Shown: positions 30,979-47,213, numbered from the stretch's first letter. The stretch: 64,000 nt of DNA from an uncultured delta proteobacterium (GCA_963804955.1 CAWDSQ010000030.1:96001-160000); one strand, 5' to 3'. The notes: generated by a model not told the origin, from the letters alone. Numbers and translations are program-made.

Positions 30979-31019
30979 TTCAAACCCTGCTTGTGAGCCT
31001 TCACATTTGATTTTGTAGG

Positions 31020-31181
31020 CCCCCTCACCCCAACCCTCTCCCATCAGGAGGCTGTCATCTCGACCGAAGGGAGAGATCTTTGTAATAAGTAAAATCAAGG
31101 GCTTAAGATTTCTCACCGCCTGCGGCGGATTCGAAATGACATTAATAAATCAATTGCGTCACAGCCGCTGATGGGAGGGGA
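31020..31181. repeat. Nested REP-like element
   Basis: Outer CCCTCTCCCATCAG / CTGATGGGAGGG enclosing GCTGTCATCTCGACC...CGAAATGACA...CACAGCC; homologous to 47597-47781. Confidence 0.65.
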
Positions 31182-31473
31182 TTAAGTGGAGGGTGATCGC
31201 AACTGATAATTTCAAATGTGATGATCCACTAGTATTCGAGCCGGGTCCATACTCCGCGGCGGAAAGTAATCTCTGTCTACAAGCAGGGGGTCAAAATTTC
31301 GATCCCCTGCGAAAAACCAGGATTGCCACGGCGGACACCCTGCAATGATAGTCGCTGGAATTTTCGCGATTGCATCAGCTTTGAAGATATACAGATTATT
31401 TTACAGCCCCTCTGATTTTTTTTCGCCAATTCCTAACGATATGCCCTTCAAACATAAAAAACTAACACTTTTA

Positions 31474-31710
31474 TGTTTATAATGTGAACAGAGTCCAATA
31501 CTTCCAATATGTTGATTTTCCATGTTTTTGTCAAAACGCCTCTTGATTCGTTGTTTAGGTGTAAAAAATTTAAACAAATACGTCTTCCTATGATCGTGGA
31601 TTTGTTTATTTTATGAACATTTTATTGATAAAATTTAATATTTTTTTATATTTTTATTAAAATTTTGAGTAAAATTTTGACATAAATCCGGTCTTGGTAT
31701 AATTATTGTA
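31474..31710 (+). promoter_or_regulatory. Three TGT-N11-ACA enhancer-like boxes and a putative sigma-54 promoter
   Basis: Boxes at 31474-31490, 31560-31576 and 31603-31619. TTGGTATAATTATTGTA at 31694-31710 is GG-N10-GT, a non-canonical -12. Confidence 0.55.
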
Positions 31711-31801
31711 TATATATAGGTGAGAGCAGAGATGAATGAACTAATACGTTATAGTTTATTTATATTTAAAACCATTAAAGAGAGAGCAGAAGGAGGAAAC
31801 A

Positions 31802-33144
31802 ATGTCGGAAGTTGTTAAAAACAAAGGTTGGTCGGTGACATGCGGCGGGCTGGGCATTAATCTTGCCCTTGGAATACTCTATGCCTGGAGTATGTTTAAA
31901 GGCGCCATAGAGAAATCCATAAAAGCAGGCGGTGAAGGCGCGTTTACCTGGGATATGTCTCAGCTGAATGACCCCTATTCAGTATGCTGCCTTGTTTTTG
32001 CTTTTTCAATGATTCTTGCCGGAAAGTGTCAGGACAAATTCGGGCCAAGGATCACGGCTTTTCTGGGCGGGATTATGGTCGGCCTGGGGCTGCTGTGGAT
32101 ATCGCAGTCATCGAGCTATATCAGCTGGGTGCTTGGTTTTGGCGTTCTTGCCGGCACCGGCATCGGTTTCGGTTATTCTTCTGCAACGCCGCCGGCGCTC
32201 AAATGGTTCCCTTCGGCAAAAACAGGTCTGATCGCAGGGCTCGTTGTCGCAGGCTTTGGCCTGGCTCCTGTCTATATTGCACCCCTGTCTGAATATTTAA
32301 TAAATGGATTTGGTATCAGCAAGGCGATGCTCGTCTATGCTGTTTCTTTTATTGTTATTGTGTGCGGACTTTCAACCTTTCTGGTGAATCCTCCGGCAGG
32401 CTATGTTCCGGGCGGTGCTGCTGCACAGAAGAAGAAAGCCGCGGCTGCCAATGATGTGCCTCCTTCCAAAGTTATGAAAAGCCTTGATTTCTGGATGCTG
32501 TGGGCAATTTATTTCATCGGCGCAGGCGCCGGATTGATGGTTATCGGCAGCGTCGCGGGCATGGCCAAGAAGAGCATGGGCTCAGCGGCTTTTGTTGCTG
32601 TGGCGATTATGGCTATCGGCAATGCGGGCGGCCGCGTTCTGGCCGGCATGGCATCCGACAAGTTCGGCCGCAATGCCACGCTTGCCGGCGTTCTGATTTT
32701 TCAGGCGCTCTTAATGATTGCTGCAATCCCCCTGGTCAGCTCACAGGAAACCAGCGCTCTGCTGATCGTGCTGCTTGCCACGTTTATCGGCTTTAATTAT
32801 GGCGCAAACCTGTCCCTGTTCCCGTCCTTCGCCAAGGACCGCTGGGGCCTTAAATCCTTCGGCGTCAACTACGGCATATTGTTTACCGCCTGGGGCGTCG
32901 GCGGCTTTGTCATGAGCCGGGTTCAGCAGACCCTGTACGCAACAACGGGCAGCTATACCTCGTCGCTGCTTATCGCAGCCACCATGCTCACCGCAGGTAT
33001 GGTGCTTGCGCTTATGCTGAAAGCGCCCGAAGACCGCAGCAGCTCCTCAGGTCTGCGCCCGAAGGCGCTGTGTTTCAGCCCGGCCTTGGATACACCATGG
33101 CTGACGGCGGTGAAAAGGTTAAAAAAGAAGAAGAGAAAAAGTAA
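31802..33144 (+). CDS. OFA (oxalate/formate antiporter)-family MFS transporter; the probable true stop at 33144 needs a frameshift near 33030-33050
   Basis: LGILYAWS, QDKFGPR, KWFPSAKTGLIAG, GRVLAGMASDKFGR and NYGILFTAWG. The 600-aa ORF fusion with the next gene is an indel artefact; the shifted frame ends ...LGYTMADGGEKVKKEEEKK*. Confidence 0.85.
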
Positions 33145-33187
33145 GGTTCGGAGCAGAGGTCACGGTAGCGAAATGCGGAGCGGCGGC

Positions 33188-33959
33188 ATGAAGAAAAAAA
33201 TCTGTCATATGATTCCTGAAGAGGAAAAACAGTGCGTCTGGATGACCAGCGGGCTCATCTCCTACAAGCTCTGCACCCGTGATTATCGCTGCGAAGAGTG
33301 TATTTTCGATCAGGTTATACGCAACGAGGCTGCAGTTGACGCCGTCGCCGGCCACGGCGACGGGCTGTCTGCTGCAGCCTCATTATTCAACTGCCGATTC
33401 CCTGCAGGAACATGCCGCTCTTTTCTATCACAGCGGCCACTGCTGGGCCAAGGTCGAGGATGCCGACCAGGTGCGCATCGGCATAGACGGCATCCTTGCC
33501 CAGATGGTCTCACCGGTCAGGACGGTGGTTCTTCCCCAGATTGGCGACGCCGTGGTGCAGGGTCAAAGCTTTGCCCATATTATTCAGGAAAAGCATATCG
33601 TTGAGCTGGTCTCTCCCCTGACCGGAACGATCCTGTCCGTCAACCAGGGCCTGAAAGCAGCACCTCATACCCTTGCCGCCGAGCCCTGGGGCAGGGGATG
33701 GCTCGTGACGATCAGGCCCGACAATCTGGAGCATGATTTGAAGGCGCTCATGTTCGGCAGAAAAGCCATGGAGTGGTATGAGAAAAAAGAGCATGAGTTT
33801 GCCACGGCGCGGGTTGGCATGCTCAGCCGGCATGAGCCGGAGCTCGGGCCCACTCTGCAGGACGGGGGGGAATTGCTCGCGAGCCTTGCCGATATGCTCA
33901 GCCCCGAGCAGTACGAGCGGATTATGGATGTTCTTTTCCGGCCTGAAGATGCTGCGTGA
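33188..33959 (+). CDS. GcvH (glycine cleavage H)-like protein with N-terminal Cys-rich domain (frameshift near 33390)
   Basis: N-terminal CVWMTSGLISYKLCTRDYRCEECIFD; GcvH-like HCWAKVE...VRIGIDG...SPLTGTILSVN...PWGRGWL. Confidence 0.78.
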
Positions 33960-34479
33960 CCCGCAGCTGCTCCCTGCAGCGGCCGCACATATCCACTGAT
34001 TTCTGATCAATATCCTCCACATATGTCGAATTGACCATAACGCAGCCCGGCTGCCTGCAGTGCAGCAGGCCGAAGGTATGCCCGAGCTCGTGAATCGACT
34101 CCTTCACCAGCCGCTCGGTCAGCACAGTCTGGTTTTCGGGCAGGCCGTAAAATTTGCTGTTCAGCCGGTGCAGGGAGACGGCCGCCGCAATGCCGTCGAG
34201 CTGCGCTTCGCCGAACACAAAGGTGAGAATCGGTATGAACAGATCGACATCGGCAACAGCCAGAACCCGGCTGGCGCCGGGCGGCGGAGCCGCGATGATT
34301 TGCAGCAGTATTTTTGAGGAGTTGTACTGCCGGCGGTTGGGGTCGAAGATGCCTGCAAGGTCAAAGGGCAAATCGACGCAGCGCGTGCGGCAGCCGAAGG
34401 CTGTGTGAATGCCCGCCTCAAGCGGTTTCAGCCAGAAGCGGGAGCCTGTCTGGATGGGAGCTATATAAATACAGGACAT
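33922..34479 (-). CDS. Archaemetzincin (M54) Zn protease
   Basis: RRQYNS, DLFIPILTFVFGEA and HELGHTFGLLHC..PGCVM...DQK...C..C. Confidence 0.9.
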   Translation of the reverse strand: MSCIYIAPIQTGSRFWLKPLEAGIHTAFGCRTRCVDLPFDLAGIFDPNRRQYNSSKILLQIIAAPPPGASRVLAVADVDLFIPILTFVFGEAQLDGIAAAVSLHRLNSKFYGLPENQTVLTERLVKESIHELGHTFGLLHCRQPGCVMVNSTYVEDIDQKSVDMCGRCREQLRVTQHLQAGKEHP

Positions 34480-34501
34480 GCGCAGCAGGCCCGCCCACCG
34501 A

Positions 34502-35848
34502 TCATTTTTTCAGGTTGTATTTTTGTATCTTGTTGTACAGGGTCAGGCGGCTGATTTTTAAAATGCCTGCCGCCTGAGCAATATTGCCGCCGGTGCGGTC
34601 GAGTATTTTTTGTATATGGGTTTTTTCAATGTCCTCCATCGAGTCCTCATCGGTTGACCGCGCAGGCCCCAGTAAAAAAGGGAATGACAGGTCGGCCGGC
34701 TGAATCAGCGTGCCTTTGGCGCCGACCATGGCGCGCTCGATAACATTGCGCAGCTCGCGCACATTGCCCGGCCACTCATAGTGCGAGAGCATCTCCAGGG
34801 TTTCCGGGGTCAAATCCGTAACATTTTTATTCATGGACTCTGCGTATTTTTTGACAAAATACCGCGCCAGCAGGGGGATGTCGGCTTTTCTTTCGCGCAG
34901 CGGCGGCAGCACGATGGCAAAAACATTGAGCCGGTAATAGAGGTCCTCGCGGAAGGTGCCTTCGCGCACGGCGTTTTCCAGGTCTTTGTTGGTTGCGCAA
35001 ATGATGCGAAAATCCACATTCAGCAGCTTGTCGCCCCCGAGGCGCATGAACTGCCTTGTTTCTATGACGCGCAGCAGGTCCATCTGCATCTTCATGCCGA
35101 TATTGCCTATCTCATCAAGAAAAACGGTCCCCTTGTCAGCCATTTCCAGCTTGCCCCGGCGGCGGTACAGCGCGCCGGTAAAGGAGCCTTTCTCGTGGCC
35201 GAACAGCTCGCTCTCCAGCAGCCCTTCGGTGTAGGCGCCGCAGTTGATGGTGATGATGGGGAAATAGCGGCGGTTGCTGTTGCTGTGGATCGCCCGGGCG
35301 ATGAGCTCCTTGCCCGTTCCGCTGTCGCCCCGGATCATGACGGTGGAGTCTGTTTTGGCGACCGTTGCGACTTTATCCATGACCTTTTTCAGGGCCGGGC
35401 TGGAGCCCACTATTTCATCGTGGTAGGAGATTTCCTCGATCTGCCGCCGCAGCTGCATGTTTTCCGACAAAAGCCTGCGCTGCTCAACGGCATTCCTGAT
35501 CAGATGCCCCATTTCATCGGGGTCGACGGGCTTGACGATATAGTCGAAAGCGCCCTCCTTGAGCGCCTGAATGCTCGTCTCGACGGAGGCGAAGGCCGTA
35601 ATCATGATGGTGATGATGTTTTTGTCGATCTGCTTGATTCTTCGCTGCAGCTCCACGCCGTCGATGCCCGGCATTTTAATGTCCAGCAGCACGATGTCCC
35701 AGGCGCTGTCCTGGAGCTTCTGCAGAGCCGCGTTGGCGTCTTCGGCGGTATCGACCCGGTAGCCGTCGAACTTAAACCACTTGCTCAGCGCGTCGCGCAC
35801 GGACGTTTCATCATCAACAACCAGTATGCCAATATCTGAGGGATTCAT
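34502..35848 (-). CDS. Sigma-54-dependent NtrC-family response regulator
   Basis: REC domain (VVDDE, LLDIKMP); GDSGTGKE, ESELFGHEKGSFTGA, FREDLYYRL, WPGNVREL; Fis-type HTH. Confidence 0.95.
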   Translation of the reverse strand: MNPSDIGILVVDDETSVRDALSKWFKFDGYRVDTAEDANAALQKLQDSAWDIVLLDIKMPGIDGVELQRRIKQIDKNIITIMITAFASVETSIQALKEGAFDYIVKPVDPDEMGHLIRNAVEQRRLLSENMQLRRQIEEISYHDEIVGSSPALKKVMDKVATVAKTDSTVMIRGDSGTGKELIARAIHSNSNRRYFPIITINCGAYTEGLLESELFGHEKGSFTGALYRRRGKLEMADKGTVFLDEIGNIGMKMQMDLLRVIETRQFMRLGGDKLLNVDFRIICATNKDLENAVREGTFREDLYYRLNVFAIVLPPLRERKADIPLLARYFVKKYAESMNKNVTDLTPETLEMLSHYEWPGNVRELRNVIERAMVGAKGTLIQPADLSFPFLLGPARSTDEDSMEDIEKTHIQKILDRTGGNIAQAAGILKISRLTLYNKIQKYNLKK

Positions 35849-35864
35849 GCGTTACAACTCCTGT

Positions 35865-37321
35865 CTAATGTTTTTCCATATACTGCTGGTTCTGGACCCG
35901 CGGCAGCTTGATCGTGAATTCAGTGCCCCTGCCCATGCTGGACTCGACGCTGATGGTTCCGCCGTGGCGCTGCACGATGCCGTAGACGGCAGAGAGGCCC
36001 AGCCCCAGGCTTTTGTTTGATTCCTTGGTGGAGAAAAAAGGATCGAATATATGGGGCAGAACATCCGCAGGGATGCCCGTGCCGAAATCGATGAGCTTGA
36101 TTTTTACGGCTGTTTTGTCCCGGTAATCGGTACGGATAATTATTTTGTTGTTCGGCGCGAGGCTTCGATGGCGTTGACGATCATGGACACAAGTATCTGC
36201 TGAATCGCTCCCGTATCGCACTGAATGAGATCGTCGCCCGTATCGAGCTCTGCAGCCAGCTCAAGGCTCTTCATTCTGGCGCTGTGGTCGATTACTTTTA
36301 TGCTCACGTCGATGATTTCATTGAGGTGCACCTCTTTGACCTCGCCCATGGTGCGCTTGGCGAACAGCAGCAGGTTTTTGACGATATCGCCGCACCGCTT
36401 GGCCTCATTGGCTATGAGCGTGAGGTTTTCCCGTGTTTCCGCAACCGTTTCGGGCTGCAGGGGCTCCTGCCCGAGGTATTTGGAGGAAAGCTTGGCATAG
36501 GAAAGAATGCCCGACAGGGGGTTGTTGATTTCATGGGCCACCATCGCCGACAGCCGTCCCGAGGGAGGCCATTTTTTCCGTCAGCGTCAGATTTTCCCTT
36601 GTTTTTTTGAGCTCTTCCTCGGCTGCGCGCTGCTGTTTGTGCGTTTTATAGCTGATGCTGATAATGCTGCTCAGCAGGAGCGATATGATCAGGAGAATGA
36701 CTACGGAGAATTTGATGATCTGGCTGGTTATCTCTGCAATTTCGGCTTTTATGTCTTCTATGTAGATGCCGGTGCCGATGATCCAGCCCCAGGGCATAGA
36801 ACCCTTTCACATAGGAAATTTTCGGCAGGATGAGATTCTGGTTATCATAGGATTGCCATTTGTACTGGATGAAGCCCGATCCCTGCGCCTTGACGACATT
36901 GACGAATTCGACGAAAACGCGTTTTCCGTCAGGGTCGGTGTAGTCTGAAAGATCTTTGCCGTTTAGGTCATTGCGGTAGGGATGAATGACCATGCGGGGG
37001 TGCATGTCATTGATCCAGAAATAGTCCTTGACTGCCTGGCCGTAATGGAGGTTTTTAATCTGGTCGATGGCCTGGCGCTGCGCTTCGGCGCGCGTGAGCA
37101 GGCCCTGGCGCTCGTCATTTTCAAGCTTCGCCAGAATATTCCATGCCGAGGTGGTGAGCTCCTGTATCATTTCCCGCTTGCGCTCCAGGCTGGTTTTTTC
37201 GATGGTCGGGATGATAAAGGCGAAAATAACGCGAAATAAACAGAATGAAGGCCAGTATCGTGGGAACGACAATGCGCCACAAAAACGACTTCCAGGGAAA
37301 TGAGATATGCGGAGATATCAT
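35865..37321 (-). CDS. Membrane sensor histidine kinase with single Cache (sCache_2-like) domain; several frameshifts
   Basis: Fragments give TM - YFWINDMHPRMVIHP...PWGWIIGTGIY - TM - EKMASLG...AHEINNPL - NAIEA - DFGTGI, FDPFFSTK, GLGLS. Confidence 0.85.
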
Positions 37322-37488
37322 AGCTGTGCACCACTCGCTTGATTTATTCAGCACATAGTCGGTATGTGCGCCGATTGCCGGCAGCCTGTGGGCCTTCACA
37401 TTTGAAATTAACTGTTTTAGTAACCCTTTTCTTAATGCCACTATATGAAAATCAGGGGCATACGTTAATTGAAAAAGGAAAATCCCAG

Positions 37489-37552
37489 CGTCATTCCGGC
37501 TTGTCCGGAATCCTTCCGCTGCGGTGGAAAAGATCCGGACAGCCGGAATGAC
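37489..37552. repeat. REP-like hairpin
   Basis: GTCATTCCGGCTTGTCCGGAATC...GATCCGGACAGCCGGAATGAC inverted repeat. Confidence 0.65.
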
Positions 37553-37581
37553 AGTCTGATGTTACGTACGGGGATTGTATC

Positions 37582-38366
37582 TCATACAAAATCAAATGTG
37601 AAGGCCCTGTCAGACAGCTCCCGCGGTCCATCCGGCCGAATGATTTTTAATTTCGCCAGCAGCTTTTCTATAAACGGCGTTTTTTCCCACTCAAGCCTGT
37701 GCTTGATAATGGTCAGCTGGAAATCCGCGTCCAGAAGCCCGAAGCCTTTCCATGCACCCTCCAGGCCATAGTAGGCCGTATGGCTGTCGCTGCAGGAAAA
37801 CCATTTGTGATGATGGCCGAACAGCCACAGCTTCGGCTTGAAATGCGCAGCCAGCTCCTGGCTGCGGGGAAAACCGGTGGCGCCGAAATGGTCCAGGCCG
37901 GGCGTGCTGGGCACGCCGATACCGGTCGGGCAGTCATGGGTCAAAATAATATCGACCTGCTGCCCGGGCAAAGGCCAGGCAGGCATTAATCTGCTGATCG
38001 GTTATGATCGCCCCCTGTTCGGTCAGCATGGAGTCCATATAGGCAGCTCCCCCAAGGGCCAGAAAACGGTAGCCCTCTATGCAGTGAACTGTGCCGCGGG
38101 GCAGATAGGTGAAAAAGGCCTGATACTTTTTGGTCAGCTTCTCAAGAGCATTGAAATCCTCATGGTTGCCGTCGATACAATACAGGGGCCGCATAAAGCG
38201 CTGCCCTTTTTTTATGAAAAAGTCGTGCAAATGGGATTTGTAGAGGCCGAAGTCCCCCAGGTGAATGATGCAGGAGATCTTCATGGCCGAGCACGTTTTC
38301 GGCATAGGCAAGCTGCTGGTTGATGGTGCCGTAGTAGCAATGGGTATCGCAGGTTACCAGAATCAC
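37582..38366 (-). CDS. Calcineurin-like metallophosphoesterase (frameshifted)
   Basis: DTH, HLGDFG, DGNHED, LTHDCP and FGHHH motifs across three fragments. The GTG start overlaps the TGA of the upstream gene. Confidence 0.85.
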
Positions 38367-41307
38367 TGGACACCTCCGATCTGGCCGGTGAAATCATAGC
38401 TCAGCTTTGCCTGGAAATTTTTTATCTGGGAGAAAATTTCCTTGAGCAGCTTTTGCTCGATAGAGGTCAGGTTTTTCGGGGTCACATAATTGTCGGGCTT
38501 TGCGTTTCCCGGCCGCTATTGCCGCAGCCTGAACCTGCAGCCGTATCTGCATGAGATAGCTGTATGCCTGCACCATTTCCTGGTAATTCAGCAGATGTCA
38601 GCACGCGCGCGCTCATGCAGCCCCAGCAGCCGCTCCAGCGTGTTGGTGGCGGGAACGCCGTGCTTGAGGGCGTAGATGCGGGCATAGTCGACAATGGGCA
38701 TCATGGCGCTTTTAATGTCAAAGGCCTTGCGGTGCTCGTCCACGGATTCGACGACAAATTTTCCGAACAGCCCGATCGGCGGGCTGAGCGGCAGAACATT
38801 GCGGGCCAGCAGCTGAAAAAATCTCGGGTTGTCGGCAACCATGGCAGCAAGAAAATCCCGCAGCTCTCCCGCGAGGCCGTCGTCTCCGAAGGCGCAGCGA
38901 AAGTCGAAAAATATTTTTGTTTTCAGGAGGTCTTCAGCCGAAGCCGCATGAATCCACTGGCTGAAATACCGCTTCCATACGGTAAGGGGCTGGCACCACT
39001 GGGGATTTTGCGCCATGTTGTTGCCCTCGCAGTAGTGGTACCCGGCCTGGTTCAGCCATCTGCAGACCATGGCGCCCAGTTTGAGGAAGTATGCCTGTAC
39101 AACCGATGACTCCAGGTCGGCGGCGGTGTCCTCAAAAATAATCGCATTGTCCTGGTCGGTCATGAGGGTCTGTTCCTGCCGGCCCTCGCTGCCGAATACC
39201 AGAAAAGCAAACCGCACCGGGGGCGGGCCCAGTTCCCGGATGGCAAATTCCAGGAGCTTTTGCAGAATCGTGTCGATCACGATGGTGGTCAGATGGTTTA
39301 TGCTTTGAGGCTTTGCGCCGCTCTTGATGAGGGTTGTTATGAGATAGGGGAGAACCTCATTATGCCTGATCACTTCGTCGGGTGATGTGTCATTGCGTAT
39401 CTCCCAGAGCAGCACCGCTGGCGAATACTTCTGAATGGCGGCTATATCCTTGCTGTTGATTAAGCCGATGATGGCGCCATGGGTATCGGTGACGAAAAGA
39501 TGGGCAATGCCCTTATTCTGCATAAGCCACCAGGACTCAAATACCGATGCATTGCCCGGCAGTGAAATAACGGGAGACGACATGATCTCGGCTACCGGGC
39601 GGTCCTCATGCTCGTGCAGGAGCATCACGGCCTTTCTCAGATCATGGTCGGTGATGACGCCGCAGTCCCTTCCCTCTGCATCGCGCACCAGCAGGACCTC
39701 GTTGTGCTGCTGCTCCATCATGCGCACCGCTTCCCCGATCGGCATGCCGGGATGGCATAGTGCCGGCTGGCGACAGGGCAGGCCGCCAAGGGGCTGATTA
39801 TAAAACAGCAGCACCGACTGCGTTTCGGAAAGGAGTTTTTCCCTTTCCTCCTCTCTCATATGCAGCTCAGTAATATCTTCCATGATGCCGTCACAGTATC
39901 GCGGCGACGCCGTCTTCGTCTTCGACCATGACGCCCCAGATGGAAGCGGTAAATACGGAGCCGTCTTTTTTCTTGAGCCTGACGATCTCCCTTTTCAGGT
40001 CTTCGGCAGATGCTTTCGGCTCAAGGGTTTTACGGTCGTCGGGGTTGCAGTACAGGCTTATGACCGGGGTGAGCGAGCAGCTCTTCCTTGCTTGCGTAGC
40101 CCAGCAGTTTCACCAGCGCTGGATTTGCTTCGATAAATTTCGGGTTCGGGCCGATGGTCCGTCGGAAAATACCCACGTTGAGATTGTTGGCAAGTGTTCT
40201 GAATTTTTCTTCGCTGCGGCCCAGGGCATCCTCTGCCTGCTTGCGTTTGGTAATATCGGTTACAACGGCCATGAAGCCGGTTTTGCCGCCGATTTCTATC
40301 GGGGATGTCGACAGAATAACATCTTTGGTTCCGCCTGATTTTGTTTTGAGCTGTGCTTCAAATGTTGCGGGAACCGATTTGCCGGCAAGCAGCTCATCCA
40401 GGAACCGGCTGCTCTGCTGGTCGTTTGATTCAGCCAGAACCGTGCGCACCGGCATGCCTGCGAAACTCGCTTTTATCGTATTCCAGCATGGCCGCTATTG
40501 TCTGATTGGCGTGCATGTAGGTTCCTTCAAGGGCCATGAGCATGCCTTCGCCTGCCGATTCGACAAGGGTGCGGTATTTTTCTTCGGAATCGCGCAGGGC
40601 CTGCTCCGCCAGCTGCTGCTGCTTGAGCGTGGCGTAGCTTTGCCTGATGATGCTCGCCAGCAGCAGCGAGATTATCAGCAGGATGAAAAAGGAAATTTCA
40701 AAAAGGTTGCGTGTTAGTTCGCTGATTTCAGCCTGGACGTCGTCGATGTAAATGCCGGTTCCGATGACCCAGCCCCAGGGCTGGAAACCTTTGACATAGG
40801 AGAGTTTCGGCAGAATGCGGTCCTCTTTATCCTTCCACTGCCACATGTACTGCATATAGCCGGCGCCCTGCCGCTTCACCAGGTCGACAAAATCCACAAA
40901 AACCCGCTTGCCTTCAGGGTCGGTGTAATCGGAAAGGTCCTTGCCATTGAGGTCGGTCCGGTACGGGTGGATAACCATGCGCGGGTGCATGTCGTTTATC
41001 CAGAAATAATCCTTCATCTCCTGGCCGTAGTGCAGGTTCTTAATCTGCTCGATGGCCTGGCGTTTGGGCCTGCGGCCGCGTGAGCAGGCCCTGCTGCTTC
41101 ATCATGCTCGAGCTTCGCGAGAATGTTCCAGGCCGAGTTGGTCAGCTCGCGGATCATTTCCCGCTTCCGGTCCATGCTGCTTTTTTCAATGGCGGGGATA
41201 ATAATGGAAAAGAAGGCGATGACAAACAGCGCTATGGTGACAGCCGTCGGGAAAACGAACCGTGCCGCAAATGACTTCCACTGGGTTGATATGTGCGGGG
41301 CAAACAT
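38363..41307 (-). CDS. Membrane-anchored Cache-PAS-PAS-CBS-DUF294 putative nucleotidyltransferase (~980 aa, several frameshifts)
   Basis: Collinear fragments 41014-41307, 40430-41017, 40030-40455, 38588-39883 and a C-terminal tail. Order: TM, sCache_2, TM, two PAS domains (SEEKYRTLVE, DITKRKQAE, SEEKFRTL), CBS pair, GSEGRQEQTLMTDQDN, FFDFR, FDIK...PIVDYAR, TNTLERL. Confidence 0.78.
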
Positions 41308-41319
41308 CGCGTAAACCTC

Positions 41320-41499
41320 TAACCGGCTGTTGGAAAACGCCCATCTGCTGCGTTGCGCTCATCGTGCTTCACTGCGGCGTACAAAAAGTACGCCTCATTT
41401 CGCATGATTGCCTGCAAGCAGGTGTCACAGACAGCGCGCGCCTTGCATCTGAGCATTTTTGAACAGCCTTCTCCTGGTGACTTTTTCAACACCCTGCTA
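41320..41499. mobile_element. MITE-like element, copy 1
   Basis: Termini GGCTGTTGGAAAA / TTTTTCAACACCCTGCTA; homologous to 62552-62844. Confidence 0.7.
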
Positions 41500-41620
41500 A
41501 TCCTCTGCTGAGCCCATACTGCTGCTGCCGTGTGCAAGACAGAATACACGGGGCACCGCATTCCTGTCAAGAAGCACAGGCAAACAATTCGTCCCCGGCT
41601 GACGCGGCCGGCTCGTTAAG

Positions 41621-41659
41621 AAAACGGGGGAGAACACCCCATTTGCTGTTCTCCCCCGT
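41621..41659 (-). terminator. Terminator after actP
   Basis: ACGGGGGAGAACA / TGTTCTCCCCCGT hairpin followed by Ts on the minus strand. Confidence 0.6.
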
Positions 41660-41692
41660 CACCGTATGCATCAGCGCAGCCTTCCTGTCCGT

Positions 41693-43597
41693 TCAGGCGG
41701 CGGCTTTTTTCTGCGAAAACAGCGATACGACAATAAGCGTTATATAGCCCAGGGGTATTGAAATGATGCCCGGGTTGTCAAGCGGTATCGGCGCTGAGGC
41801 TTTGGGCAGGCCGTACAGATCAACATAGGTGCTGGGCGACAGCAGAATGATCCCGAGCGCCGTGACCATGCCGACCACGATGGATGCCGCGATGCCCTTG
41901 GAGGTCGTCTTTTTCCAGAACAGCAGCATGGTGATGGCCGGCAGGTTTGCCGAGGCGGCAACCGCAAAGGCAAGGCCGACCAGAAATGAAACGTTCATGC
42001 CTTTGCATAAAATGCCCAGAATAATGGCGATGACGCCAACGACAACAGCGGCGATTTTGCCTGCCTTCACCTGCCCCTTGTCCGTCATCTCTATGCCAAG
42101 AAATCCAGTCATCAGATCATGGGCCACCGCGCCGGAGGCGGCAACGATGAGCCTGAAACCGTTCCCAGAACCGTTGCAAAAGCAATGGCGCAGATGCAGG
42201 AGAAGATGGTGATGCCGAAGTATTTCGCCAGCAGCGGCGCCGACATATTGCTGCTTTCCATGTCAAGAACACCCGTCATCATGGCGCCAAGGCCCATGAA
42301 CAGGGTCAGAACATAGAAAAAGCCGATTGAGCCGATGGCCACGATGGTTGACTTGCGGGCATCCTTGGGGCTCGAGACCGTGTAGTAGCGGATGAGAATA
42401 TGGGGCAGGGCCGAGGTGCCGAAGAACAGGGCGATCATGAGCGAAATGAAATTCAGGCGCGACATGAAGTCAGCTCCCTCGTCGACCTTGAACTTCAGGC
42501 CCGGCCGCATGATGTCTGGAGCCTGCCGTGGGGTTCTGCCGCCAGATGGTGACCTTGTCGCCGCCGTCCTTGACAACTGCTTTGGCAAAGCGGACCACTT
42601 CGGACCGCTCGATGGTGGCCAAAAATTCAAAGGGCCCGAGAGCGCCGGTTTTCTGGACCTCTTTGCCGTCGACGATGATTTTGCTGGCATGGCCGACCTG
42701 GTAGAACTTCCTGGCATCCTTGGGCTCGCCGTTATACAGGGTTTTGCCGTCGGCGGTTTTTGTCATGGAAAGGGCTTCCTTGAGTACCGGTCCGCCGTCT
42801 TTGGCGCTCACATGCCACCAGGTGGCAATGCCGTTCTGTGTGAGTTTTGCAAAGAGGGCTTTGCCGTCCTTGAAGGTGCCGGCGACGGTATATGCCGGGT
42901 CTGCAACCGCGGTAACGGCGTCATTTGCCACAGTGGCGTTTATGGTTTTAAACTTGTGATAGTTTGCATCCGGGGGGGTGTTAATGCCGTTGACGAAAAT
43001 ACTGATGGTGAGAATGGTTGAAAAAACAATCAGCAGGCCGCCCTTGATGAACTGCACATAGGTGGTTGATGTCATGCCCGCGGTTGCAACTATAAAGATA
43101 ACGATGGCGCCGACAAGGATAACCCCCATGTAGTGGGGAAGCCCCAGCAGCGGGGTTACCAGGTCGCCTGCGCCGACCATCTGGGGAATCAGGTAGCATA
43201 CGGAAACAACCAGCGTGCTGATGGCTGCCGTGAGCATGATTCCCCTGGACCCGAACTTGTAGTTGAGCGCATCGGTGAAGGTGTATTTGCCGAAGCGCTT
43301 AAGCGGTTCGGCCACAACAAACAGGGCAACGACCCAGCCGGCAAGGTAGCCGATTGAATACAGAAAGCCGTCATAGCCGTCAAAGGCGATCATGCCGCAG
43401 ATGCCGAGAAATGACGCGGCTGAAAGATAGTCGCCGGCAAAGGCTATGCCGTTAACGCCCCAGTGAATATTGCCGCCGGCGGCATAATAGCCCTTGGAGG
43501 ACTGTGTTTTTTTTGCAAAGTATGAAGAAAGCCCGAGCACGCCGAGTACAAAAGCTATAAATATGCCAATTGCAAATGGTGATGCTGCATAAATCAT
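41693..43597 (-). CDS. actP: Cation/acetate symporter ActP (SSS family), frameshifted
   Basis: NGIAFAGDYLSAASFLG, AEPLKRFGKYT, YLIPQMVGAG, GTSALPHILIRYYTV, AFATVLGTV and AFAVAASANLP; downstream of DUF485. Confidence 0.88.
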
Positions 43598-43612
43598 TGT
43601 TCGTCTCCCCTT

Positions 43613-43882
43613 TTATTTGTTTAATTCATATTCTTTTTTGGTGCACATGTGGTTGTAGATAACACCCATTATGATGGCTAAAAGAATCAGGCCGAAACCG
43701 TACACGCAGGCAAGATTCAGCCCCGCCATGACGATAATGCCCATGGTTTTGGGGCTCATTACATTGATGACGATAAAGCCGGCATAAACCAGCACATAAA
43801 ATATAAATAAATATATCCCGAGCCGCGCCTTATACTCGGAAGCCCTGTCCTCACCCCATTGTGTTGCTGGTCCATGTCCCAT
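43613..43882 (-). CDS. DUF485 (YjcH-like) small membrane partner of ActP
   Basis: 89 aa with two TM segments, immediately upstream of actP, which is the canonical arrangement. Confidence 0.8.
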   Translation of the reverse strand: MGHGPATQWGEDRASEYKARLGIYLFIFYVLVYAGFIVINVMSPKTMGIIVMAGLNLACVYGFGLILLAIIMGVIYNHMCTKKEYELNK

Positions 43883-43907
43883 TTTTTTTCTCCTTGTTAA
43901 GTGAATA

Positions 43908-44021
43908 GGTAAAGAAAATGAACAAACTGACTGTCTCTATATTTCACAATTTAAACACTGTCAAGTGGAAAAATGAAAATACGTAAAAAAAATATACATA
44001 CACATGTTCTCTTTGTGAACA
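43908..44021 (-). promoter_or_regulatory. Sigma-70 promoter of DUF485-actP overlapped and flanked by TGT-N11-ACA-like boxes
   Basis: Minus-strand TTGACA (43964-43959)-N17-TATAGA (43941-43936). Boxes at 43908-43924, 43941-43957, 43982-43998 and 44005-44021 (the last is a perfect match). Confidence 0.55.
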
Positions 44022-44303
44022 AAATTCTAAAAAAATATTTGCCGGACTGCCGTTACTTTTAGTATGCCGTAGGGGGATATGCTGTTTAAGGGGCACCGTT
44101 TATGCCGAAAGACGGTTTTTAAATAGTATTTAAGTTATTTAAGATTTTTAGTTGATGTGTTTCAATGGCGGGAGCGGATAAGAAGGCTGGAGAAACTAAT
44201 CGGTTTTTGTGTATACTTATTGATCAAATCTTGGATTATTGTGTTCACAATGTATGCATTGATGTTTTAGGGACATTTTTTACCTTAGGCCTCGTTTTTC
44301 TGT

Positions 44304-44620
44304 ACATCTCGAGCCCTTCAGCACTTCGCTCAGGGCAGGCTTCCGGGAGCAGATCTTTGTTTTTGGAGTAGATTGATGCGCGCGGCGAACCTTCAGACTC
44401 AGTTGCTCTCACCTCCCCTTAATCCCTCCCATCAAAGGCTGTGTCATAATTAAAATAAATGTCATTCTGAGGAGCCGCAGGCGACGAAGAATCTCGTTGC
44501 TTGATGATTATATGAGAAAGGGCGAATGGCCATTCGCCCCTACGCAACGCCAGAGATCCTTCGTTTCACTCAGGATGACCGCACTATTTAATTGCTACAC
44601 AGTCTCTTGCGGGGGGAGGT
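44304..44620. repeat. Cluster of nested REP-like elements
   Basis: CTTCGCTCAGGGCAGGCT module; TGTCATTCTGAG...CTCAGGATGAC pair enclosing a GTAG-type REP (GGGCGAATGGCCATTCGCCCCTAC). Confidence 0.6.
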
Positions 44621-44718
44621 GGGGCTCCAGGCGGCTTGCGGTGTATCGGGTGTTGCCAAAACCCTTGCCCGGCTGCGCTGCGCGTGGTAGTATACCTGTT
44701 TTACCGGAGCAGCTATAC

Positions 44719-46356
44719 ATGATTCATATTACCAATATCAGCAAGCAGCATGGCTCGCAGATTCTTTTCAAGAACGCGAGCCTTCAGATTCTGCCCGGCA
44801 CGCGCACGGGCCTGGTGGGGCCCAATGGCGCCGGCAAGACCACGGTTTTTCGCCTCATTACCGGCCAGGAAGAGGCTGACTCGGGCGATATATCAGGTCC
44901 CGAAGCGCACGAAAATCGGCTATTTCTCCCAGGATGTGGGCGATATGGCAGGCCGGTCCGCCCTTGGCGAGGTCATGTCGGCCGTAGGGGATGTGATGAG
45001 CCTGGGGGAGGAGATACGCGCGGATGGAGCAGGCCATGGCCCTGCCCATGGCTGATGAGGAGATGGCAGAGCTTCTGGAGCGCTACGGCAATGCCGTGGA
45101 GCAGTTCGAGCACAGCGGCGGCTATGATCTTGAGTCGCGCGCCCAGACCGTGCTCACCGGCCTTGGCATCGGCCCGGATGATTATGACCGGCCCGTTGAA
45201 TCGTTCAGCGGCGGCTGGAAAATGCGCATCGAGCTGGCGAAAATACTCACCATCAACCCCGATGTGCTGCTGCTTGACGAGCCCACCAACCATCTTGACA
45301 TGGAGTCGATCAGTCTGGCTTGAAGACTGGATTGTCACGCAGTTCAAGGGCGCGCTGCTCATGACCTGCCATGATCACGATTTCATGAACCGCATCGTGT
45401 CGCGCATTATCGAGGTTGCCAACCAGAGCCTCACCACGTATTCGGGCAATTACGACTTTTACCTGCGCGAGCGCGAGATACGGCGCGAGCAGCTGCTGGC
45501 CAGCTACCGCCGGCAGCAGGAAATGCTTGCCAAGGAAGAGGACTTCATCGCGCGCTTTGCCGCCCGGGCCTCCCATGCCTCGCAGGTGCAGTCGCGGGTG
45601 AAGAAAATAGATAAGATCGAGCGCATCGAGCTGCCGCCCGAGCAGCGCGTCGTATCATTCGAGTTTGCCGAGCCGCCGCGCTCGGGCGATGATGTGGCCC
45701 GCATCGTGAATCTCGGCAAGGTGTGGCAGCATGACGACGGCACGGAGAAATCGGTCTTCGGCGGCGTGTCGGGCATCATCCGGCGGCAGGACAAGATCGC
45801 CGTGGTGGGCGTCAACGGCGCGGGCAAGTCGACCTTTCTGAAAGTGCTGGCCGGCCAGACCGAGCCGACAACCGGCAGCCTCACCATCGGCGCAAACGTC
45901 ATCCCCGGCTATTTCAGCCAGCATGCCATGGATCTGCTCGATCCCGACAAAACCGTGTATGAGACTGTGCAGGATGCCATCCCCATGGCAAATATCGGCG
46001 TGGTCAGAAATCTCTGCGCAGCCTTTCTGTTTCAGGGCGATGCTGTTGAGAAGCGCATAAAGCTGCTGTCGGGCGGCGAGAAGAGCAGGGTGCTGCTGGC
46101 AACGCTGCTTGCCCGGCCCTTAAATCTGCTGATTCTGGATGAGCCCACCAATCATCTTGATTTTCAGTCGCGCCAGATACTGCTGCAGGCGCTTGCCAAA
46201 TTCACCGGCACCGTGGTGCTGGTGAGCCACGACCGGTATTTCCTTCGCTCCCTCGTGGGCCGCGTGTTTGAAATCGACCACGGCGAGATGATCATCTACG
46301 AAGGCAGCTACGAATACTATGTCAGCAAAACCCAGCGCAATGTCCAGGCCGCCTGA
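44719..46356 (+). CDS. ABC-F family ATPase (compensating frameshifts at about 44900-45320)
   Basis: GPNGAGKT, FSGGWKMR, LLLDEPTNHLD, GVNGAGKST, LSGGEK, LDEPTNHLD and VSHDRYF; no TM domains. Confidence 0.9.
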   Translation: MIHITNISKQHGSQILFKNASLQILPGTRTGLVGPNGAGKTTVFRLITGQEEADSGDISGPEAHENRLFLPGCGRYGRPVRPWRGHVGRRGCDEPGGGDTRGWSRPWPCPWLMRRWQSFWSATAMPWSSSSTAAAMILSRAPRPCSPALASARMIMTGPLNRSAAAGKCASSWRKYSPSTPMCCCLTSPPTILTWSRSVWLEDWIVTQFKGALLMTCHDHDFMNRIVSRIIEVANQSLTTYSGNYDFYLREREIRREQLLASYRRQQEMLAKEEDFIARFAARASHASQVQSRVKKIDKIERIELPPEQRVVSFEFAEPPRSGDDVARIVNLGKVWQHDDGTEKSVFGGVSGIIRRQDKIAVVGVNGAGKSTFLKVLAGQTEPTTGSLTIGANVIPGYFSQHAMDLLDPDKTVYETVQDAIPMANIGVVRNLCAAFLFQGDAVEKRIKLLSGGEKSRVLLATLLARPLNLLILDEPTNHLDFQSRQILLQALAKFTGTVVLVSHDRYFLRSLVGRVFEIDHGEMIIYEGSYEYYVSKTQRNVQAA

Positions 46357-46363
46357 GGTTTTT

Positions 46364-46506
46364 CACCGCCCGCTTCGCTCGAGACGCAGAGAACACAGAG
46401 AAAAAAATTTTGTTCTTTCAAAGGCAGAAGCCTTTTATTTTTCGCTTTTCTCAGCGAAAAACAAAAAAGAACGTTTTTCTCTGCGCCCTCAGCGACTCTG
46501 CGGTGC
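46364..46506. repeat. REP-like inverted repeat
   Basis: CACCG...GACGCAGAGAACACAGAG ... CTCTGCGCCCTCAGCGACTCTGCGGTG, followed by heptamer-like tracts at 46520-46595. Confidence 0.5.
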
Positions 46507-46847
46507 ATCGTTTTTCGCTTTTCCTACAGCCTAACAGGCTATAGCCTATCAGCCTTCCTTCTCCCCTCCCGCCTACAGTCTAATAGCCTATAACCTTAAT
46601 TTAACCATTGACACATAGAATTATTTTTAATATGTCTATTTAATATTAAATATCCTTCGCTTCTTTAAACTTACAGCAGGCTAAAAAAAAGCGGATTACT
46701 ATTTTTTGCTTTAACGTTTATACGAAAGGCGCAACATTTTTATGTAAGCAGGCGGCTATTTTCTATCAGCTTGCCACTATACCGGCTTTATTGATTGAAT
46801 CTGCATAAAACTGATCGGTACGTATAAAAACTAGGTGAGGCGGGTAC

Positions 46848-47213
46848 ATGAAGAAGGATGCCAGGAAATCAACACGCATATCGACCAATCTGAAGCTTAT
46901 ATCCCGTAATTCCGGCAATTGCATAGATTCTCACCTAATGAATATGAGCAGTGGGGGTGCTTTTATTCAAACCAGTCACCTCCTGCCAATCGATGCTGAA
47001 TTTTCTTTAAATCTTCAACTGCCCGGCGATCCTGAAATTATGGCCATTGACGGACGTGTCGTCTGGACGAAGTCTGTTTCCAACTCTTCTCCTGCCGGCA
47101 TGGGCATACAGTTCACGAATATTCAGCCCCATCATGAAAAGAAACTGGCTGCTTTTGTTGAGCAGAATCGTAATCCGGACAGCAGCGCTGAGCCGGTCAA
47201 ATTATATTTGTAA
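46848..47213 (+). CDS. Stand-alone PilZ-domain protein (c-di-GMP receptor)
   Basis: RKSTR (RxxxR) and NMSSGG (NxSxxG) motifs; GRVVW...GMGIQF. Confidence 0.88.
   Translation: MKKDARKSTRISTNLKLISRNSGNCIDSHLMNMSSGGAFIQTSHLLPIDAEFSLNLQLPGDPEIMAIDGRVVWTKSVSNSSPAGMGIQFTNIQPHHEKKLAAFVEQNRNPDSSAEPVKLYL

Follow-up and report, generated by a model that had tools for sequence, protein, structure and literature searches.

A 64,000-nucleotide stretch of DNA from an uncultured delta proteobacterium (GCA_963804955.1 CAWDSQ010000030.1:96001-160000), referred to here as the window and numbered from its first letter, carries the same 17-bp box, TGT-N11-ACA, in front of two transporter operons. One begins with a major facilitator superfamily (MFS) gene; the other comprises DUF485 and actP, the latter encoding a sodium:solute symporter. 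An NtrC-type response regulator and a sensor histidine kinase are encoded between them (Table 1). As read from the sequence, the boxes are conserved, predicted docking sites ahead of two carboxylate transporter genes. The neighbouring regulator probably binds them, acting on the MFS gene through sigma-54, with actP as a member of the same regulon. Such a regulon, in an uncultured, syntroph-like member of the Thermodesulfobacteriota with relatives labelled Smithella, Smithellaceae or Syntrophaceae, would join a Cache sensor kinase and its sigma-54 regulator, through a 17-bp site, to two monocarboxylate transporters. Syntroph-like organisms live on the exchange of short carboxylates.

Box clusters upstream of the two operons

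A sequence search of the window located the 17-mers named in an earlier, sequence-based description of the region (the initial annotation) at 31474, 31560, 31603 and 44005, all four exactly as given there. Local density at the two operons was compared with a first-order Markov model of the same AT-rich region. The 400 nt before the MFS gene contain three boxes against 0.11 expected (P ~0.0005), and the 300 nt before DUF485 contain two against 0.10 expected (P ~0.0045). Scoring with a weight matrix derived from orthologous sites, at a threshold of at least 12 bits, gave three matches in the MFS region (0.06 expected) and four in the DUF485 intergenic region (43982, 44005, 44210 and 44242; 0.03 expected). 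Chance can be dismissed as the source of this clustering. The comparison of motif frequency with AT-rich background, which the initial annotation had proposed as a check, places the clusters at both loci far above background, and its observation of one box type upstream of both transporters is borne out by a conserved motif before both operons. The count of TGT-N11-ACA over the whole window was dropped as an uninformative test, being barely above chance: 13 matches compare with 8.4 +/- 2.7 in shuffled sequences, and 5 of 100 shuffles reach 13. The pattern has 817 matches genome-wide.

Box clusters occur in the organism's own genome only at the MFS locus, at the actP locus and at a near-duplicate actP locus on contig C29. 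Other high-scoring hits are solitary (C32:5870 at 23.5 bits, C9:56108 and others) and were not counted as further regulon members. No -24/-12 site was seen in the surroundings of C32:5870, and by our arithmetic about 0.4 chance hits are expected at 23.5 bits in 4.26 Mb.

Conservation of the boxes with the regulator

Sixty relatives were searched for the MFS protein and for the regulator. In 11 of them (G002, G003, G005, G013, G030, G018, G012, G016, G015, G010 and G036), the MFS gene converges with that of a regulator orthologue at least 78% identical. Together with the window, these provided 12 regulator-linked MFS upstream regions of at least 300 nt for comparison; locus L002, with just 129 nt of upstream sequence, was excluded from the box count. 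Two to four exact boxes are present in each of the 12 regions, whereas exact boxes are absent from all 17 upstream regions of MFS homologues that have no regulator neighbour; these counts, like those from the profile, overstate independence because the related genomes are kin. Three additional loci from Smithella-type metagenome-assembled genomes (MAGs) have three boxes each. The 39 distinct sites yield the consensus TGTTTA-N5-TAAACA, the TGT and ACA arms of which are fixed by the procedure used for site collection.

The arrangement of the boxes is conserved as well. They stand at about -330 and -243 from the MFS ATG, and a box A orthologue is present at -311 to -375 in 11/11 related regulator-linked loci. 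A further position at about -200, that of box C, is occupied only in the window, G002 and G003, which form a single genus. Across several genera and in the three Smithella-type loci, a tandem with an offset of 22-23 bp is followed after 84-88 bp by a single box. The partner of box A in the window would be a weak one; G002 and G003 share its right arm, and in other genera an exact box stands at this 23-bp offset. Between the boxes and the MFS promoter lies an AT-rich near-palindrome that is possibly the site of a bending protein. Strings like TTTATTRATAAA occupy the equivalent place in L003, L004, L009, L010, L030 and L008.

The regulator matches Pfam Response_reg, Sigma54_activat and HTH_8, with GSFTGA at residues 221-226. 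Its adjacency to the MFS gene is conserved in relatives, and its HTH_8 is the sole DNA-binding domain that domain scans found in the conserved cluster. The boxes might instead be bound by a different factor, such as a global regulator or a nucleoid protein with a preference for AT-rich palindromes. The motif is AT-rich, the genome holds at least nine matches to the regulator at E <= 1e-90, and the available text of PMC4641369 has TGT-N11-ACA as common to several Desulfovibrio enhancer-binding proteins, which makes cross-binding by a paralogue conceivable. However, the boxes track this particular orthologue (12/12 vs 0/17), this regulon accounts for all high-scoring clusters in the genome, and distant orthologues of 64-72% identity also adjoin box-preceded operons. 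Occupancy by another factor appears very improbable, and the boxes are most readily attributed, with considerable confidence, to binding by the local response regulator.

A sigma-54-type promoter downstream of the MFS boxes

The pattern TGGYAY-N5-TTGW has two matches in the window. The one at 31695-31709 lies 76 bp downstream of the end of box C and 221 bp downstream of the start of box A, in good agreement with the 75-220 bp reported initially. The other (TGGCATACTGGTTGT, 35817-35831, minus strand) falls within the first codons of the regulator gene and is probably a chance match. In 15/15 Syntrophales-type loci, 7-9 of 10 positions match TGGCAC-N5-TTGC between -96 and -128 relative to the MFS ATG, and this conserved -24/-12 site stands 90-230 bp downstream of the boxes. 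The -12 element of these loci is TTGT or TTGA, and between genera just the TGG and TTG positions are conserved. The genome encodes rpoN (Sigma54_DBD match of 201 bits, contig C13), and GSFTGA is among the loop variants that keep activity according to the accessible part of PMC4641369. Because the -24/-12 site is conserved, the regulator has the appropriate domains including GSFTGA, and rpoN is present, activation of the MFS gene from upstream enhancer sites is well supported. Sigma-54-dependent activation of the MFS operon is accordingly rated as highly likely, and the initial proposal that the regulator turns on the MFS gene via sigma-54 appears well founded.

The mechanism would proceed as follows. 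The regulator, paired with the Cache-domain sensor kinase, would bind the 17-bp boxes, and the MFS upstream activating sequence would consist of the tandem pair followed, after ~86 bp, by one or two more boxes, all 76-221 bp before the sigma-54 promoter. Once phosphorylated, the regulator would assemble on the boxes and bring about the open complex by DNA looping, inducing the transporter together with the GcvH-like gene behind it. The same regulator would occupy the tandem before the -35 element of the DUF485-actP promoter. Both transporters would then form one regulon, because the regulator would bind boxes at both operons.

Identity of the transporters

The initial annotation took the MFS protein for an oxalate/formate antiporter, a label that is corrected here. 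Residues 1-450 score 403 bits against the SfMCT L-lactate model NF049980 (cut-off 320), and the G012 orthologue scores 420 bits. Both oxalate/formate models are failed, with 210 vs 374.85 for TIGR00890 and 141.5 vs 335 for TIGR04259. These profile scores make it an SfMCT-type carrier of lactate/monocarboxylates and not an oxalate:formate antiporter. Its frame of 600 aa reflects an indel in an A-rich run, which removes the stop found at codon 447 in G001; the frame enters the GcvH-like gene.

The symporter has a Pfam SSF match, with the DUF485 gene directly upstream of its own. Its intact G012 counterpart scores 325 vs 1099 and 406 vs 750 against the ActP models TIGR02711 and NF006903, and its best model is MctC (445 vs 670). 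The Cache part of the kinase matches NCBIfam MctS weakly (111 vs a cut-off of 700). Because the SfMCT cut-off is passed, the symporter is closest to MctC/ActP and the kinase Cache domain weakly matches MctS, a monocarboxylate theme is likely. The signal would be a short carboxylate.

A sigma-70-like DUF485-actP promoter and its conserved tandem

A search for TGGYAY-N5-TTGW found no sigma-54 site before DUF485 in the window. Instead, the operon is preceded by a sigma-70-like promoter, with boxes 1 and 2 centred at about -84 and -61 if transcription starts ~7 nt after the -10 element. Within 300 nt of the DUF485 start, every one of the eight linked DUF485-actP loci shows one or more exact boxes, and in six of the eight an exact box 1 is found at -138 to -154 from the ATG. 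Six DUF485 upstream sequences from four genera are 61% identical overall when aligned. Invariant columns fall within box 1, a degenerate box 2 beginning 23 bp after it, CTTGACA, TATA.A 17 nt on, and the ribosome-binding site. In the window, the -35 hexamer TTGACA matches at 6/6 positions, the spacer measures 17 nt, and the -10 element TATAGA is without T at position 6. In G005 and G013 the tandem lies upstream of another hexamer pair, TTGCAT-N17-TATRAY. The two degenerate copies further upstream, between 44210 and 44258, have a single counterpart of 10.8 bits in G003.

The tandem before the conserved CTTGACA-N17-TATAAA-type promoter is kept in three gene arrangements. DUF485-actP is divergent from the MFS gene, with the boxes in the common intergenic region, in G005, G013, G030, G018 and G036; it is found on the far side of the DUF294 sensor gene in both the window and G003; and it is directly upstream of the kinase gene in G012. 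In the ancestral state the two operons may have been divergent with common boxes, and would have separated in the genus of the window with each retaining its own set. The five relatives with boxes between divergent genes also bear on a simpler proposal, in which the DUF485 boxes are leftovers of that intergenic region that serve the MFS sigma-54 promoter only, leaving actP unaffected. That they lie near DUF485 could then be incidental, and enhancer-binding proteins normally need sigma-54. Conversely, the relocated DUF485-actP operons (window and G003; G012) have kept the tandem at equal distance from CTTGACA while their flanks diverged, the MFS gene has also retained a box set of its own, and the regulator-less G009 is without boxes yet keeps the promoter. 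We consider the leftover explanation improbable and control of actP via boxes 1 and 2 reasonably likely.

The direction of this control is a separate question. The initial annotation placed a box in a repressing position at actP and proposed a reciprocal switch, with the regulator activating the MFS gene via sigma-54 and repressing DUF485-actP by occupying its sigma-70 promoter. The degenerate copy that was said to fill the spacer of TTGACA-N17-TATAGA is indeed present at 43957-43941, two weak matches at 43932 and 43908 (9.4 and 10.2 bits) cover the -10 element and the leader, and NtrC at glnAp1, PspF and XylR are precedents for repression of sigma-70 promoters that overlap their sites. However, the spacer copy scores just 7.6 bits and is shared by the window and its congener G003 only, being absent from G030, G036, G018 and G012. 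The matches at 43932 and 43908 are likewise confined to the genus (g1), and partly present in G003, and the conserved pair is upstream of the -35 element. Centred at about -61 and -84, this tandem would not occlude the promoter. Moreover, the spacer resembles the TTGACA-N3-TGTCAA palindrome of another genus (g7) and may be a relic of a different site, and the co-occurrence of the regulator with this ActP type, described below, fits joint use at least as well. Of the switch proposed initially, the activation of the MFS gene stands; no conserved feature favours repression of actP, and the reciprocal arrangement as a whole is judged unlikely.

Given the upstream placement of the tandem and the suboptimal -10 element, a positive or modulating effect at actP is favoured over promoter occlusion, if only tentatively. 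The regulator-linked promoters have TATAAA or TATAGA where the box-less G009 has TATAAT, a single comparison that hints at activator dependence.

Co-occurrence of the regulator and ActP

This ActP type is present in 15 of 61 genomes, namely in 13/13 that have a regulator orthologue against 2/48 that have none (G007 and G009). A perfect TTGACA-N17-TATAAT is found at the homologous place in G009, and the weight matrix detected no box of at least 8 bits upstream of its DUF485. In both G007 and G009, DUF485 is also preceded by a canonical sigma-54 promoter with TGACA-type palindromes. In genus g7, where DUF485-actP is unlinked, TTGACA is preceded at 17 nt by a single exact TGT-N11-ACA box, and a canonical TGGCAY-N5-TTGC promoter is also present. 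This g7 promoter was rejected as a sign of actP activation by the present regulator; another activator probably serves it, because G007 and G009 lack the regulator and carry the same kind. In some lineages actP thus looks to have a second, different sigma-54 input. Across the DUF485 upstream regions L072-L076 (G015, G010, G016, G007 and G009), TGGCAY-N5-TTGC is seen with TTGACA-N3-TGTCAA-type palindromes upstream.

Besides the kinship of the relatives, several points weigh against the proposed regulon. At the MFS gene, the -24/-12 site of the window is the weakest of the set, with 7/10 positions and TTGT in place of TTGC, and a sigma-70-like TTGACA-N18 candidate overlaps it. At actP, the -10 hexamers (TATAGA/TATAAA) are without the conserved final T, and a simple sigma-70 scan omits TTGACA-N17-TATAGA for this reason. 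A role at a sigma-70 promoter would also be unusual, because sigma-54 promoters are normally the only ones served by enhancer-binding proteins whose GAFTGA-type loop is intact. The weak copies over the actP core promoter and leader (43941, 43932 and 43908; 7.6-10.2 bits) could repress in this genus, and G007, without a regulator orthologue, has one 12.2-bit box upstream of DUF485. Finally, many genes of the window are broken into two to four frames, the kinase and actP genes each into three and the DUF294 sensor gene into at least three, and the G012 orthologues of these three are intact (494, 638 and 977 aa). These breaks look like indel errors in the assembly consensus; if those in the kinase, actP and other genes are real, the system is in decay in this organism.

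The MFS promoter could also be read as a sigma-70 one (TTGACA, 15 nt, TGGTATAAT), but this reading was rejected: it is restricted to the genus of the window, and TGG and TTG are conserved everywhere.

The wider regulator family

Regulator orthologues of 72-74% identity are found in eight Desulfuromonadales/Geobacter-type MAG loci (L060-L067), all eight with GAFPGA as the loop sequence. The same Thr-to-Pro change inactivated NifA, according to the available portion of PMC4641369. Five of these loci have an adjacent MFS gene, preceded by two or three boxes at 55-190 nt from the ATG, and no -24/-12 match of at least 8/10 was found near the boxes of these five. Being one lineage, the GAFPGA loci count as one event. 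Together with the window regulator they could form a series in which an enhancer-binding protein becomes a TyrR-like sigma-70 regulator with its motif and target gene kept, the window regulator using its boxes at two promoter classes, as a sigma-54 enhancer and at about -61/-84 of a sigma-70 promoter. This evolutionary reading is rather doubtful at present.

More distant orthologues (64-72% identity; L054, G047 and G023) adjoin box-preceded operons for GcvH-like, 4Fe-4S and NrfD proteins. The loci compared were L054:280-8154, L042:620-5404 and L043:7093-12380 (GcvH-like, Fer4_11, NrfD). Two of the three operons have a tandem of 23-24 bp, the two boxes of G047 are 86 bp apart, and a TGGCCC-N5-TTGA site is visible at the L054 operon. 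The latter also includes a gene for an 880-aa acetyl-CoA synthetase fused to a GcvH-like domain.

Relation to described systems

Among described systems, LurSR of D. vulgaris Hildenborough (DVU3022/DVU3023) comes closest. It is a sigma-54-dependent two-component system that activates a lactate permease and lactate-oxidation genes according to the accessible text of PMC6456213. The likeness is one of architecture, and orthology is not claimed. Two or three upstream sites (-250 to -400) precede a mapped -24/-12 promoter of the lactate operon, and its -12 element is TTGT, as in the window (ATTGGCACATTTCTTGTTA). LurR differs in its 16-bp GTC-N10-GAC-type motif, against TGT-N11-ACA here, and the LurSR-controlled transporter is a lactate permease, not an SfMCT-type MFS protein; the available part of that report mentions neither an actP nor a sigma-70 target. 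Motifs with TGT/ACA half-sites 11 bp apart form a class already known from enhancer-binding proteins of Desulfovibrio (Kazakov et al. 2015, PMC4641369, as far as its text is available), and those regulons differ from that of the window in belonging to another order and having other targets.

AtoC of E. coli is the best NCBIfam model for the regulator (471 bits) and AtoS that for the G012 kinase. Because the scores are below the equivalog cut-offs (714 and 646), the two proteins are not AtoC and AtoS. AtoSC is like the window system in joining a short-chain carboxylate theme to a sigma-54 regulator, and differs in its targets and in the Cache sensor domain found here. In Rhizobium, a sensor kinase system controls a sodium:solute-family monocarboxylate permease (MctSR-MctP type). 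This system and MctC of Corynebacterium resemble the present one in the MctS-type Cache match and the MctC/ActP-like symporter; they differ in that the scores are far below the cut-offs (111 vs 700 and 445 vs 670) and the regulator here is NtrC-type. Two NtrC-family proteins, E. coli TyrR and Rhodobacter capsulatus NtrC, act at sigma-70 promoters from palindromic boxes that lie before the promoter or over it; they bear on the actP promoter as well as on the GAFPGA orthologues. Unlike them, the window regulator keeps the GSFTGA sigma-54 contact loop and a sigma-54 target.

A literature search, confined to top-ranked results and with subscription journals mostly uncovered, returned no account of the regulator, of the boxes or of a link between an SfMCT-type transporter and DUF485/ActP. 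The type of sigma-54 transporter regulon and the TGT-N11-ACA class are known already. The more interesting point is the presence of the same boxes at a sigma-70-type promoter, along with the GAFPGA lineage that is without -24/-12 sites, which would offer a natural system for studying how enhancer-binding proteins change promoter class.

Neighbouring genes and repeats

The gene map was obtained from Pfam and NCBIfam scans (Table 1). Through it the locus is linked to a cassette, so far undescribed, in which a sensor kinase and a sigma-54 regulator are combined with archaemetzincin and GcvH-like proteins.

Table 1 Boxes, promoters and genes of the region, in window coordinates (a dot in the strand column: no strand assigned)
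Feature	Position	Strand	Remarks
Hydrogenase / complex-I-like operon	up to 30978	+	
Weak box A partner	31451..31467	.	right arm only (..TAACA), 23 bp upstream of box A, <8 bits
Box A, TGTTTATAATGTGAACA	31474..31490	.	22.7 bits
Box B, TGTAAAAAATTTAAACA	31560..31576	.	21.7 bits, 86 bp from box A
Box C, TGTTTATTTTATGAACA	31603..31619	.	23.5 bits
AT-rich near-palindrome, TTTTATTGATAAAATTTAATAT	31620..31645	.	between boxes and MFS promoter
-24/-12 promoter TGGTAT-N5-TTGT, TGGTATAATTATTGT	31695..31709	+	MFS gene
SfMCT-type monocarboxylate (L-lactate) MFS transporter	31802..33151	+	open frame continues to 33604
GcvH-like protein gene	33279..33959	+	split over frames, co-oriented with MFS gene
Archaemetzincin (peptidase M54)	33922..34479	-	directly downstream of regulator
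NtrC-type response regulator	34502..35848	-	REC (phospho-acceptor Asp in VLLDIKMPG), AAA+ GSFTGA, HTH_8; candidate box binder
Sensor histidine kinase	35865..37272	-	sCache_2, HisKA, HATPase_c; three frames here, intact 494 aa in G012
Calcineurin-like phosphoesterase	~37582..38576	-	in pieces here, 250 aa in G012; limits approximate
Cache-PAS-CBS-DUF294 nucleotidyltransferase sensor	38588..41307	-	at least three frames here, one 977-aa gene in G012
ActP/MctC-like sodium:solute symporter	41693..43597	-	three frames here, intact 638 aa in G012
DUF485 (YjcH-like) small membrane protein	43613..43882	-	first gene of actP operon
Sigma-70-like promoter TTGACA-N17-TATAGA	43936..43964	-	TTGACA 43964-43959, 17-nt spacer, TATAGA 43941-43936
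Spacer copy, TGTTTAAATTGTGAAAT	43941..43957	-	weak, 7.6 bits
Box 2, minus strand TGTATATTTTTTTTACG	43982..43998	.	13.2 bits, 17 nt upstream of -35, centre about -61
Box 1, TGTTCTCTTTGTGAACA	44005..44021	.	17.1 bits, 23 bp from box 2, centre about -84
Two degenerate copies	44210-44226, 44242-44258	.	12.8 bits and 12.9 bits
ABC-F gene	from 44497	+	

The archaemetzincin gene directly follows the regulator gene in every locus examined, down to 61% regulator identity. The N-terminus of the GcvH-like protein (33190-33330) is a cysteine-rich stretch with C-x..-C motifs, located before the H-protein fold. The intact DUF294 sensor of 977 aa (L037:1364-4297) is a membrane sensor with sCache_2, two PAS domains, CBS and DUF294, followed by the calcineurin-like phosphoesterase. 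Its Cache domain is 42-59% identical to that of the kinase, and the sensor accompanies actP even in regulator-less genomes (L075 and L076).

Contig C29:24300-35443 (G000) holds a second version of window positions 37389-47000, with ABC-F, DUF485-actP and the DUF294 sensor and including boxes 1 and 2. The copy is 83-94% identical (mostly 88-94%) and runs up to the end of the contig. The stretch may be truly duplicated, or sequence of a variant strain may have been binned into the MAG. Short intergenic repeats at 41317-41500, 37385-37608 and 30986-31233 have copies on many contigs, at least 15 of them, at 71-87% identity, for the 41317-41500 element. One repeat sits just upstream of the MFS control region and may mark sites of rearrangement.

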